DNA of 64,000 nt from Gammaproteobacteria bacterium (GTDB taxonomy: Bacteria; Pseudomonadota; Gammaproteobacteria; Eutrophobiales; Eutrophobiaceae). A program made the position numbers and the translations under genes. Shown one piece after another: positions 13,967-53,583 of the stretch. The notes beneath the pieces were generated by a model. The model worked only from the letters and a program-made list of their open reading frames with translations. It ran no database searches and had not been told where the DNA came from. Every line of letters starts with the position of its first letter. The stretch's first letter is position 1. The DNA lies in the NCBI GenBank assembly GCA_965215365.1, contig CBDCDS010000003.1, positions 2,568,992-2,632,991 on the forward strand. Reading direction: 5' to 3'.

Positions 13967-14447
13967 TGCTGCCGTGGTGCTGGAACAGATTCTAGGCATT
14001 AAACAACGCCGTGCAGACGCGACCGTCAGGACCGAACTGCAATCCAGGCTGGAGCTGGAGCAGGCCGCCGGCGCGCTGCGCGCCGAGCAGCAACGCAAGC
14101 AGGAGTACCAGGACTGGTCGGTCGGCGAGCGCCGGCGTCTGTACACGGAGTTGCAGGAGCACGGCGCCGTGACGTACAACGAGCTGATGCAGTGGAACGC
14201 GCAAGTGGCCGACATCAAACAGGGACTGCTGGATATTGAGGCCGGTATCATGCGGCTGGAGCAGGAGCGTCAGCAAAAAATGGACGCGCACCAGACGGCG
14301 CTGACGGCCAGACACGAGGCCCGCCGGCAGGTACTGAAATTTACCGAGCTGGTGGACGCGCAACGGTTCGACGCCCTGCTCGCGCGGCAGGCCCGCGAAG
14401 AAAAGGAACTGGAAGATTTTCGACGCCCTGAGTCTCATAGCTATTGA
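13956..14447 (+). CDS. sctO: T3SS stalk protein (YscO-like coiled coil); last codons derive from an IS end
   Basis: Coiled-coil ORF directly after sctN ending '...EEKELEDF'; probable TTG start at 13956. Confidence 0.75.
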
Positions 14448-14456
14448 ACCTGGACA
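14428..14456 (+). mobile_element. Solo right-end remnant of the IS481-family element
   Basis: ctgagtctcatagctattgaacctggaca is 27/29 identical to the IS right end ctgagtctcatatgtattgaacctggaca (53520-53548). Confidence 0.85.
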
Positions 14457-14461
14457 CACTG

Positions 14462-14490
14462 TTGACAACCACTCGGATTTGTTGTACTAT
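14462..14490 (+). promoter_or_regulatory. sigma70-type promoter of sterol operon
   Basis: TTGACA (14462-14467), 17 nt, TACTAT (14485-14490), 45 nt before the GTG at 14536. Confidence 0.75.
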
Positions 14491-14535
14491 CGCCTCGGTC
14501 TCAATTAACAAAACAGTCAGAAGCGAACTCCTAAC

Positions 14536-15636
14536 GTGCCCACCGAAACATCAACCGCCTCAGCTGCGCCGCCGGTTTTCCTCACCGGCGCGGCCGGTCA
14601 TGTCGGCGCCAACCTGTTGCGACGCTTGCTTGATGATGGCGTGCGCGTGCGGGTATTGCTGCGCCATGAGGACAATAACGAGGGCCTGGAAGGTCTTGAC
14701 GTTGAACGCGTGTACGGCGATATCCGTAATCTCGATGAGACCCGGCGCGCGCTGGAGGGTTGTCAGGGTGTTTACCACGTTGCCGCCAAAATTTCGACCA
14801 TTGAAGGCAATCTGGCGCACCGCCGGGAAATATACGAGTGCAATGTGATCGGTACCCGCAACGTGCTGCAGGCGGCACGCGAAACTGAAGCCGGCCGGGT
14901 GGTAGTAACCGGCTCGTTCAGCGCCGTGGGATACGATCTGGACAACCCGTCCGCACCCGCGCACGAAAACATGCAGTTCTACCCCATGGAGCGCACCATG
15001 CCTTACGAGCGCAGCAAGTCATTGGTGGAGCATGAGTGCTGGCGCGCCGCGGCCAGGGGCCAGGATGTGGTCGTCGCCACCTGTTGCGCAGTAGTTGGCG
15101 GCGCGGATTTCTTCCCGTCGCGCCTGGGCCGCACCTTGTGCGACTATTCCCACGGCAAACTGCGCGCGTATATCGAGGGCGGTTTCGAGTTTGTCGCAGC
15201 CAGAGACATCGTAGCAGGGCATGTGTTGTGCATGCACAAAGGACGCTCCGGAGAAAAGTATATCTTCAGCAGCGAATACAAGACCATCTCCGAGATCGTG
15301 GCCATGTTCGAAGAGGTGTCGGGCGTGCCGCAACCCGCGCGCCGGATTCCGTCGCCGGTGATGCTGGTCTTCTCAGAGGTGGCCAGCTTTTACCTGAGTC
15401 GCGCGCACCCGGACTTCCCCCAGCGCTTTACGCCCGGCGCCATCCGCCTGCTGCGTAAGCGCCTGCATGCCAATACCAGCAAGGCCCGACAGGAATTGGG
15501 CTACCAGCCCACCAGCATCCGGGATGCCATGCACGAGGCCTACGCGTTTCATTATCACCAGCGCAAGGTGATTACCAATCCCGCGGCGCGACCGCCGCGC
15601 GCCAACGGCGCGGAATCGACGCATGGGGCGCAATAG
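14536..15636 (+). CDS. NAD(P)-dependent 3-beta-HSD/decarboxylase-like SDR (SdmB-like sterol C-4 demethylation)
   Basis: 'TGAAGHVG' Rossmann motif, YxxxK 'YERSK'; adjacent to Rieske oxygenase in sterol operon. Confidence 0.75.
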   Translation: MPTETSTASAAPPVFLTGAAGHVGANLLRRLLDDGVRVRVLLRHEDNNEGLEGLDVERVYGDIRNLDETRRALEGCQGVYHVAAKISTIEGNLAHRREIYECNVIGTRNVLQAARETEAGRVVVTGSFSAVGYDLDNPSAPAHENMQFYPMERTMPYERSKSLVEHECWRAAARGQDVVVATCCAVVGGADFFPSRLGRTLCDYSHGKLRAYIEGGFEFVAARDIVAGHVLCMHKGRSGEKYIFSSEYKTISEIVAMFEEVSGVPQPARRIPSPVMLVFSEVASFYLSRAHPDFPQRFTPGAIRLLRKRLHANTSKARQELGYQPTSIRDAMHEAYAFHYHQRKVITNPAARPPRANGAESTHGAQ

Positions 15637-15678
15637 GGCGGGTGTGCCATTCATTATCAATGCGCTTGAGAGGACAAT

Positions 15679-51883: not shown

Positions 51884-51919
51884 ACATGGCCACGTACATG
51901 GCCACGTACATGGCCACAT
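51884..51919. repeat. Three tandem 12-bp repeats (acatggccacgt)
   Basis: Read directly; third copy imperfect. Confidence 0.85.
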
Positions 51920-51986
51920 ATCGACTTCACGGATGACCGGGATGCTTGTCTGTTCACCGTAACCGTTCACCGCAAACAGGCCGCGC

Positions 51987-52760
51987 TCACTCAAACACCC
52001 GTGGCACAAACCCCTCCTCATTAACGATACTGGCGCTGTCGCCGGTGGCGCGGATGACGAACAGGCCCTGGCGTTCTGCATGTGTTTTGGCAGCCTTGCT
52101 GGTTTTGAGGTAGGCCATCGCCCCGTAAATCGTCTTGCCCCGATGTTCCGGTTCGTAATACGTGTATTTGAGCAGTTTTTTCAGAAAGTGTTTGATGTCC
52201 GCCGCACACAAGGTGGTCTTCACTTCCACCACCACCACTTCGACCCCGTTAATCGCCACAATGTCAAACTCAAAGTCCTCGCCGTTGCGCTTGCCATAAG
52301 GCCTGGGATGGATGCGATCTACCAGAATATCCCGGCGTTGCAGCAGGGCTACGAGGTCACCCTCGACCAGGCTTTCCATGAAGTCACCCCAACGGTTGTC
52401 AAACCGGCCTTGCATCCTGTTCAGGCTTTTGTCCAGGCGCCGGTCGGTTTCCCGGGCATTTTCTTTCATGCGCCGGTCGGTTTCCTTCATCTGCTGGCTG
52501 GTCTCCTTCACCAGCCGACTGGTCTCCTTCACCAGCCGGCCGGTTTCCCGGGCATTTTCCTTTATGATCCGGTCGGTTTCCCGGGCATTTTCCTTTATGA
52601 TCCGGTCGGTTTCCCGGGCACGTTCTTTTATGCGTTGGTCGGTTTCTTTTGCTTGTTCCTCCAGTAGCCGGGCGATTTCCTGCTGCGCTGCGCGTAATTC
52701 CTGCATGCCAGCCCAGAACGCCTCAGGCGTGGCGTGTTCATGCGGTGTTTTGTTGTCCAT
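51987..52760 (-). CDS. Coiled-coil repeat protein with C-terminal PD-(D/E)XK-like domain (DUF3782-like)
   Basis: 'KENARETDRII' 33-bp repeats, 'NRWGDFMESLV', 'EFDIVAING..VVVVEVKT'. Confidence 0.75.
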   Translation of the reverse strand: MDNKTPHEHATPEAFWAGMQELRAAQQEIARLLEEQAKETDQRIKERARETDRIIKENARETDRIIKENARETGRLVKETSRLVKETSQQMKETDRRMKENARETDRRLDKSLNRMQGRFDNRWGDFMESLVEGDLVALLQRRDILVDRIHPRPYGKRNGEDFEFDIVAINGVEVVVVEVKTTLCAADIKHFLKKLLKYTYYEPEHRGKTIYGAMAYLKTSKAAKTHAERQGLFVIRATGDSASIVNEEGFVPRVFE

Positions 52761-52960
52761 GACAGATACCTCCGTATCGGTTAGGTTGATGGGTTTGATA
52801 AAGCGGGCGGCAGCGAATGCAATCGAACCGCTCGCTCACTGCAGCATTGTACAGGGATGCAGTGGGTGGTGCAAACTGCTGCTGCTCATTTCGGAAAGTC
52901 TTGCCTCCCGGGGAAGGCAGGGCAGGCCCGACAAAGTATGATGCGGTTCATAATCGCCAC

Positions 52961-53548
52961 TGTCCGGGTTCAGAAACAAGTGAGACTCTTTAGATAAAGA
53001 AATCGGGTAGTCTGTGTGTAAAGTGATTTCGATTAACTTACACAGGAGGACTACCCGATGCAGATCAAAAGCCTGCGGGTGAAATCATATCGCAGTTGGC
53101 GCGTCGATGATACTACCGTGTCCAGGTTCAATACATATGAGACTCAGAGGCAGGCTGTGTGAGTTGTTGATAATACTCCATTGGGGTTAATAAACCAATA
53201 CCGTCATGCGGGCGGTAGGTATTGTAGTATTGCTGATACTCTGCCAGTTTGCGGTTGATGGCGGCCACGGTCAGTGGGCCCTCGTAGAACGGATAGAACT
53301 CATAGCGGCTGGTGGCATTGGCGCGTTCTACACAGCCGTTGTATTCGGGTTTTTTCGGGGGCAGCACGTACAGGGGGATTCCTAAGTCCTGGCAAGCCTG
53401 CTCGAACTCATCTCGGAACTCCGAGGAGTATCAGCAATACTACAATACCTACCGCCCGCATGACGGTATTGGTTTATTAACCCCAATGGAGTATTATCAA
53501 CAACTCACACAGCCTGCCTCTGAGTCTCATATGTATTGAACCTGGACA
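52961..53548 (+). mobile_element. Defective IS481 composite: 5' part of one copy, inverted 3' part of a second copy, then 3' end of the first; 6-bp TSD CGCCAC
   Basis: IRL at 52961; inverted IRR starts 53119; junction 53425/53426; IRR ends 53548; cgccac at 52955-52960 and 53549-53554. Confidence 0.9.
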
Positions 53549-53554
53549 CGCCAC

Positions 53555-53583
53555 TTGACGCTTGTTCAGAATATCAGTAACTT
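53555..53583 (+). promoter_or_regulatory. sigma70-type promoter of ilv operon
   Basis: TTGACG (53555-53560), 17 nt, TAACTT (53578-53583). Confidence 0.55.

Follow-up and report, generated by a model that had tools for sequence, protein, structure and literature searches.

Oriented integration of an IS481-like insertion sequence at sigma70-type promoters of a gammaproteobacterium

We analysed a stretch of 64,000 nucleotides from a gammaproteobacterium of the family Eutrophobiaceae (assembly GCA_965215365.1, contig CBDCDS010000003.1, positions 2,568,992 to 2,632,991 of the forward strand), hereafter called the window, which contains copies of an insertion sequence (IS) that encodes a transposase of the DDE (aspartate-aspartate-glutamate) type. 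The insertion of this IS481-like element is almost certainly site-specific and takes place at sigma70-type promoters in a single orientation. Staggered cuts give rise to a target duplication of 5 bp, sometimes of 4 or 6 bp. On its promoter side this duplication borders directly on the -35 hexamer, and it covers about positions -40 to -36. The right end is directed toward the promoter, so that the transposase gene is co-directional with it; the -35 and -10 boxes are left intact, and all sequence upstream of them is moved 1.1 kb away. The best explanation overall, to which we assign a probability of about 0.6, is targeted and oriented integration at promoters in which RNA polymerase would guide the transposition complex.

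Results

Promoter motifs beside right ends throughout the genome

A sequence-only reading of the window had noted that four of four right ends of the element lie ahead of a -35/-10 motif, and all four tips and the listed motifs were found. This pattern is weak when taken alone, and a genome-wide test was decisive. The host genome (2.73 Mb in 3 contigs) contained 26 full copies of the element at 97-100% identity and about 40 partial matches, and tips with usable flanks numbered 41 for the right ends, which carry the right inverted repeat (IRR), and 43 for the left ends. Each flank was scored by its matches, out of 12, to TTGACA, a spacer of 16-18 nt and TATAAT, and the first hexamer was allowed to start 2-9 nt past the tip. 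The E. coli consensus was used for scoring because regions 2.4 and 4.2 of the host sigma70, the gene for which was located in the genome, are taken by us to resemble those of E. coli. A score of at least 8 was observed at 25 of the 41 right ends, at 4 of the 43 left ends and at 1.6% of 20,000 random positions, and a score of at least 7 at 34, at 9 and at 8.5%, respectively. The difference between right and left ends (Fisher, p = 6e-7) and that between right ends and random positions (binomial, 8e-35) were both marked.

The pattern was also observed without optimisation of the motif. The sequence-only reading had expected TTG and TAnnnT to be enriched at fixed distances in a larger set of insertions; indeed, among the 41 right-end flanks, 23 had TTG starting at offset 5 or 6 and 24 had TAnnnT starting at offset 28 or 29, whereas both offset profiles were flat for the left-end flanks. 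An in-register TAnnnT was present at 32/41 right ends versus 3 left ends (of 43), an orientation bias of about 10:1. With offsets 26-31 allowed, TAnnnT was found at 22/26 full copies and at 11/15 partial or solo right ends.

The -35 hexamer starts 5-6 nt past the right tip, immediately after the target duplication of 4-6 bp. Duplications were kept in 18 of the 26 full copies, eleven of which have 5 bp, five 6 bp and two 4 bp, and the eight full copies without a duplication are compatible with recombination between copies. No conservation was observed among the duplicated bases themselves. Furthermore, promoter adjacency is not general to the IS elements of this genome: an IS66-type element with about 16 copies showed the promoter pattern at 0/7 and 2/11 flanks, and an IS1634-type element showed it at 2/7 and 1/4, although these counts are small.

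The element and its transposase

The full-length element is 1132 bp long and has imperfect terminal inverted repeats of about 27-28 bp, both tips of which begin with TGTCC. These repeats contain no TTGACA-N17-TATAAT-like arrangement. The single open reading frame (ORF) is the transposase gene, which encodes a protein of 341 residues of the helix-turn-helix (HTH) plus DDE type; its ATG is preceded by AGGAGG at 7 nt, and its stop codon TGA lies within the right inverted repeat, 9 nt from the tip. The DDE residues D182, D241 and E276 were invariant in 10 aligned sequences of the clade. The first 14 residues, to which the IS481 model does not extend, were near-invariant among clade members down to 50% identity.

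Pfam domains HTH_32, HTH_23 and rve_3 were detected above their cut-offs, and rve was detected at 26.7 bits, below its cut-off of 32.6. An HTH and an rve-type DDE core in one ORF, as found here, are features of the IS481 family, as are a length of about 1-1.3 kb, repeats beginning with TGT and a short target duplication, to which the 1132 bp, the TGTCC tips and the duplications of 4-6 bp in 18/26 full copies correspond. The IS481-type leucine zipper PF13011 gave 19.6 bits against a cut-off of 22.2. The best NCBIfam match was the IS481 model NF033577 (180.7 bits and E 4e-53 over model positions 2-284 of 284), followed by IS3 with 87.8 bits. However, the match to NF033577 did not reach the curated cut-off of 224 bits. 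The earlier assignment to the IS481 family therefore held as far as the best model is concerned but not at the level of the family cut-off, and because of this score the element is named IS481-like: we read it as a divergent IS481-like lineage rather than as a canonical member.

Copies and target sites in the window

Right-end tips were located in the window by exact match to AACCTGGACA, and exactly four were present, at 14447-14456 (plus strand), 35482-35491 (minus), 53119-53128 (minus) and 53539-53548 (plus). The genes behind these tips are those of SdmB-like and SdmA-like sterol demethylases, that of a methyltransferase resembling cyclopropane-fatty-acid (CFA) synthase, and ilvI.

The only intact copy in the window occupies 35482-36613 on the minus strand, with its left tip at 36613 and its right tip at 35482, and is 100% identical to 7 other genomic copies. 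Its transposase gene lies at 35491-36516 (minus) and encodes the 341 residues that gave the Pfam and NCBIfam matches described above. Read on the minus strand, the left copy of the 5-bp target duplication CGGGG is found at 36614-36618 and the right copy at 35477-35481, where it abuts the -35 hexamer; in empty sites it is present as a single copy. The putative target promoter of the CFA-synthase-like methyltransferase gene follows at 35448-35476 (minus) and consists of TTGTCA (35476-35471), 17 nt and TACTCT (35453-35448), as in the motif cgggg TTGTCA-17-TACTCT listed earlier.

The tip ahead of the sterol demethylase genes had been regarded as the end of an IS copy. The right-end tip is indeed present, but it belongs to a solo remnant of about 32 nt at 14425-14456 (plus; C3:2583416-2583447) and not to a full copy. 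An upstream ORF, 13854-14447, terminates within this remnant. The promoter-like site before the SdmB-like and SdmA-like genes lies at 14462-14490 (plus), 5 nt past the remnant tip, and the listed motif cactg TTGACA-17-TACTAT is present there.

The two remaining tips, one of which had been described as nested in another copy, lie in the stretch 52961-53548. The nested right end was recognised, but both tips are parts of one rearranged copy (158 + inverted 307 + 123 bp) in which a copy with the duplication CGCCAC received a second copy, inserted inversely at its position 158, and parts of both were lost later. The left 158 bp of the disrupted copy are at 52961-53118 (plus), preceded by the left duplication CGCCAC at 52955-52960; the right-end 307 bp of the second copy, inserted inversely into the first and later truncated, are at 53119-53425 (minus); and the right-end 123 bp of the disrupted copy, with the right inverted repeat at their end, are at 53426-53548 (plus). 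The right duplication CGCCAC (53549-53554) and the putative ilvI promoter, which is composed of TTGACG (53555-53560), 17 nt and TAACTT (53578-53583), together occupy 53549-53583 (plus), in agreement with the listed cgccac TTGACG-17-TAACTT. For the nested tip, the listed motif cggtag TATCAT-17-TATGAT is present, and it can alternatively be read as cggta GTATCA-18-TATGAT. The latter reading corresponds to a promoter-like site at 53084-53113 (minus; GTATCA, 18 nt, TATGAT), which lies within the left end of the element itself and runs antisense to the start of the transposase gene. In this single case, the site was the target of the nested insertion at 53119 and is, by analogy, a possible counterpart of the outward promoter Pout of IS481.

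Empty sites

A sister genome at 92% identity has an exact empty site at the CFA locus, with one CGGGG followed by the same promoter, and none of five sister species carries the element there. In three other public runs (two studies), contigs join position 35475 to position 36613 with no mismatches on either side; the 1137 bp skipped in these IS-free contigs equal the 1132-bp element plus the 5-bp duplication. Contigs of a fourth public run break at the ends of the element. The insertion at the CFA site is real and recent.

At the ilvI site, the same promoter recurs in a sister genome that lacks the element there, with 14 extra bases upstream of it; this is not a clean empty site. At the sterol-operon site, the first 113 nt past the remnant were unaligned in the two sister genomes that matched. 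The earlier proposal that orientation and distance are fixed and that the promoters stay intact was borne out, the promoter being already present in IS-free alleles and in sister species.

Promoter character of the targets

By crude gene calls, the next gene reads away from the element at 33/41 right ends, usually at a distance of 60-300 nt, versus 23/43 left ends. A solo right-end remnant of 46 nt (C3:143380-143502) lies 47 nt ahead of the gene for tRNA-Lys, with TTTACC-17-TATGAT in between; because this remnant adjoins a promoter-like site of tRNA-Lys, promoters of RNA genes also appear to be targets. The motif at the CFA site, gggg TTGTCA N17 TAnnCT, is kept in five sister species of the genus, and the sequence around it varies.

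The frequency of TAnnnT at a spacing of 16-18 nt was compared between targets and other sites. Among targets with TTG at offset 4-6, it was present in 20/25 in the host genome and in 22/25 in relatives (see below), and it was present at 315/3745 (8.4%) of intergenic gene-oriented TTG and at 45/123 (36.6%) of perfect TTGACA. The -10 box is much commoner at targets than expected from direct recognition of the -35 box together with survival in intergenic DNA.

Relatives in other genomes

A scan of species-representative genomes gave 67 loci encoding relatives of the transposase, at 39-88% identity, in 13 other genome records; the hosts were gammaproteobacterial metagenome-assembled genomes and one Amylibacter genome. 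The right ends of the relatives were anchored on the end of the transposase match. A recognisable right tip was present at 58 of the 66 loci that include the C-terminal part of the gene and missing at 8, and removal of 2 duplicate flanks left 56. A score of at least 8 was observed in 33 of these 56 right flanks and a score of at least 7 in 45, and the offset was 5 in 27 of the 33. The controls gave 3/41 for left ends and 3.4% for random flank positions. At least one promoter-type flank was present in 10/13 records.

The nearest annotated plasmid relatives, at about 41-43% identity, were found in Thermaceae. On a plasmid of Allomeiothermus silvanus carrying four full copies of a relative (about 41% identity), a clear -35/-10 pair was observed at offset 5 beside three, and the 5-bp duplications match in two of these three; the fourth copy, which sits inside another one, shows only a good -10 box. 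Single copies on plasmids of Meiothermus taiwanensis and Thermus thermophilus had no clear promoter beside the presumed end, the ends being undefinable from one copy. Promoter targeting is a trait common to the clade of relatives.

A second element with the same target position

The same genome contains another element of 1403 bp (E1403; copy at C3:848204-849606), which encodes a DDE transposase of 418 residues with 25% identity to the IS481-like transposase over 249 residues. Only rve was detected in it by Pfam (32.7 bits), the NCBIfam IS481 model gave 61.7 bits, and the nearest annotation was a record named 'ISNCY-like element ISLbi1 family transposase', at 26.6% identity over 84% of the query. 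The transposase-proximal (left) end of E1403 lies 5 nt ahead of -35/-10. Five genomes of the genus gave 16 unique flanks, of which 13 had TAnnnT at offsets 27-31 and 11 scored at least 8. Furthermore, the 5-bp duplications of three intact copies in the host genome abut the -35 hexamer. At C3:2399069-2401590, the IS481-like element lies exactly between E1403 and the -35 hexamer of one promoter; the same spot was therefore used twice.

A relative of E1403 from Polaromonas (55% identity) adjoins a TniQ gene.

Discussion

Mechanism and alternative explanations

We propose that the transposition complex would reach its target via the promoter-bound RNA polymerase holoenzyme and that it probably does not read both hexamers itself. 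The most plausible contact would be with region 4 of sigma, with the C-terminal domain of an alpha subunit or with the distortion that they make in the DNA; region 4, the alpha C-terminal domain and the DNA bend are candidates from general knowledge of promoter complexes. We infer guidance by the holoenzyme because the -10 box is kept at 23 bp from the cut, because the cut site itself carries no sequence signal, and because the position is shared by two distant transposases and by a relative from another phylum. This polymerase-mediated step is somewhat more likely than not in our estimation, and integration at promoters as such is hardly in doubt. A broader reading is more tentative and falls somewhat short of an even chance, namely that rve-type promoter hunters, which dock on the sigma70 holoenzyme and insert to the exact base at the upstream edge of the -35 box, occur across phyla and include the marine gammaproteobacterial IS481-like clade, the Thermaceae relative and an independent ISNCY-like lineage that uses its other end.

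Instead of following the polymerase, the transposase or its multimeric complex might read promoter DNA directly, by recognising TTG together with an AT-rich or deformable -10 region, or by DNA shape. The position of TTG immediately beside the duplication and the presence of two HTH regions in the transposase are in line with direct reading, and short target consensus sequences are common among DDE transposases. Nevertheless, the -10 box, 23 bp away, is kept at least as well as the -35 box (32/41 vs 25/41), and transposases with 25% identity, as well as the other-phylum relative at about 41% identity, would each need a bipartite specificity like that of sigma70. The element's inverted repeats, moreover, contain nothing of the TTGACA-N17-TATAAT kind, and we consider direct reading unlikely. 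Much less probable still is random insertion followed by selection for copies that spare genes and promoters. Crude gene calls put the coding share of the genome at about 90%, and survivors would be expected in intergenic DNA; however, selection does not explain the single-base precision (offset 5-6, duplication abutting the -35 box) or the orientation bias of about 10:1 (32 vs 3), the IS66-type and IS1634-type elements of the same genome show no comparable excess on their small counts, and the polymorphic insertion is recent. The chance that the element brings the promoter with it as a mobile outward promoter, or that insertion creates a hybrid one, is negligible. Outward and hybrid promoters are known for IS481 and other elements (PMC6161684), but here the flanks differ at every site, the duplication separates the tip from the -35 box, and empty sites with the same promoter contradict an origin from the element.

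Several points nonetheless weigh against targeting of promoters through the polymerase. Nine of the 41 right ends have no in-register TAnnnT, several of them being nested or rearranged remnants, and copies in one genome are not fully independent of each other. In the window, the CFA and ilvI sites match the consensus at only 8/12 positions each, and a promoter scan at a threshold of at least 9/12 lists neither of them nor the nested site. The target sites would count as promoters by consensus, gene orientation and conservation only. The relatives derive mostly from metagenome-assembled genomes. A comparison of offset with spacer length was mixed on small counts and did not single out the -35 or the -10 box as the one that sets the distance. 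Finally, the conserved N-terminal motif was considered as the targeting determinant; this candidate is weakened by the transposase of the Thermaceae relative, from which the 14-residue motif is missing.

Comparison with known systems

TnGBS conjugative transposons and ISLre2-family IS elements, which have Mutator-like DDE transposases, insert 15-17 bp upstream of sigma-A promoters (PMC3942029), and contact with the polymerase initiation complex was proposed for them by analogy with Ty3 (PMC3942029). The element described here resembles them in integrating upstream of sigma-A/sigma70-type promoters without destroying these. It differs in its rve-type, IS481-like transposase, and no Mutator-type family was found among the Pfam and NCBIfam matches of the transposase (HTH and rve; IS481-, IS3-, IS630-, IS21-, ISNCY- and IS30-type models). 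It also differs in its hosts, which are Gammaproteobacteria and Thermaceae rather than Streptococcus and other Firmicutes, and in its geometry: TnGBS and ISLre2 lie 15-17 bp upstream of the -35 box, whereas here a duplication of 5-6 bp abuts it. The -35 start was found 5-6 nt from the tip, outside the 15-17 bp of those elements.

The ISAba32/ISAjo2 group of IS1202, called 'dif hunters', inserts in one orientation beside dif-like sites, at a distance from the XerC arm of 5-6 bp, which is the length of the direct repeat (bioRxiv 10.1101/2022.12.17.520857; PMC10132070). IS1202-group transposases are distantly related to those of IS481 and IS3 (bioRxiv 10.1101/2022.12.17.520857; PMC10132070), and inverted repeats beginning with TGT are a feature of IS481 and IS3 (bioRxiv 10.1101/2022.12.17.520857). 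Common to both cases are a fixed element end 5-6 bp from a protein-binding site, a distance equal to the duplication, and constant orientation. In the ISAba32 group, however, the target is the XerC arm of a dif-like site and not a -35/-10 promoter, the left end faces it where here the right end does (the left in E1403), and the elements are about 1.5 kb long with transposases of about 440 residues, compared with 1132 bp and 341 residues. By its type of target and the end that faces it, the present element stands outside that group.

IS481 recognises the short palindromic target NCTAGN. The element shares with IS481 of Bordetella pertussis and the canonical family a length of about 1 kb, a single HTH plus DDE gene, repeats beginning with TGT and a short duplication. 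IS481 has an internal antisense promoter, Pout, near its left end, and read-through from IS481 into downstream genes occurs in either orientation in B. pertussis, 46 same versus 38 opposite (PMC6161684). In contrast to these 46 versus 38 cases, 33/41 right ends here are co-oriented with the next gene. The present transposase further differs from the canonical family by its score, which is below the curated cut-off of that family.

That a host protein bound to DNA can steer integration to a harmless position adjacent to a gene is known from the yeast retrotransposons Ty3 and Tf1 and from Tn7 at attTn7. These differ in being eukaryotic retroelements or a multi-protein transposon, with other enzymes and other targets; Ty3 is mentioned in the TnGBS paper (PMC3942029). 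A review-type remark on 'motifs upstream of promoters' cites TnGBS papers only (PMC10433421). Our literature searches, which covered search listings and text passages, gave no description of IS481-like or ISLbi1-like elements that target promoters. The picture drawn in the sequence-only reading (promoters for TnGBS/ISLre2, Xer sites for IS1202, nothing reported for IS481) agrees with these partial searches, and within them oriented targeting of the promoter edge seems to be undescribed for the IS481 family.

Implications

Very few bacterial elements are known to choose their targets via the gene-expression machinery of the host, and the Mutator-like TnGBS/ISLre2 elements of Gram-positive bacteria were the sole published case of promoter targeting found in the literature searched. 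What is new here is the same strategy in another transposase superfamily with a sharper geometry, the duplication abutting the -35 box, and its occurrence in two distant lineages and in two phyla. These findings suggest that promoter hunting is a recurrent way for elements to multiply and yet spare the host. Promoters would act as a safe harbour that lets the element attain at least 26 copies in a small genome, and targeting of them helps to explain how that number is tolerated in 2.7 Mb. Regulatory rewiring is predicted, because insertion moves upstream activator sites and UP elements away from core promoters that themselves survive.

Beside the IS1202-Xer case, the element offers a system for studying how a DDE transposase reads protein-bound DNA. 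In uncultured bacteria its copies point to likely promoters, and the element might find use in promoter-proximal insertion. If the element does hunt promoters, its copy number and location would report polymerase occupancy, reuse of one promoter would stack elements there, and the enzyme could become a tool for promoter mapping in vivo or for promoter-proximal delivery of cargo.

Other features of the window and the genome

The IS66-type element used for comparison above is 2285 bp long (copy at C3:222700-225500) and has an ORF of 230 residues with a DPPY motif ahead of its transposase. No NCBIfam model matched this ORF at E 1e-5; it may represent a passenger or accessory gene of a methyltransferase-like kind.

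Between the -10 box and the CFA-like gene, at window positions 35367-35448, a short palindromic repeat is present; such repeats are about 45-90 bp long with CCCGCA...TGCGGG termini and resemble repetitive extragenic palindromic (REP) sequences or miniature inverted-repeat transposable elements (MITEs). It has about 100 matches across the genome and is missing at the equivalent place in one sister genome. The possibility that this repeat targets -10 boxes was rejected, as the upstream sequence varies among the approximately 100 genomic matches.

Long tandem repeats that look in-frame were found in the window at 40256-41515, 45417-47411, 47584-48039 and 48891-49806. Their unit types are six units of 339 bp, units of 27 bp and units of about 280-290 bp, which suggest one or more very large genes for repetitive surface proteins. 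A run of 33-bp direct repeats was also observed at 52429-52656, directly upstream of the disrupted copy near ilvI.

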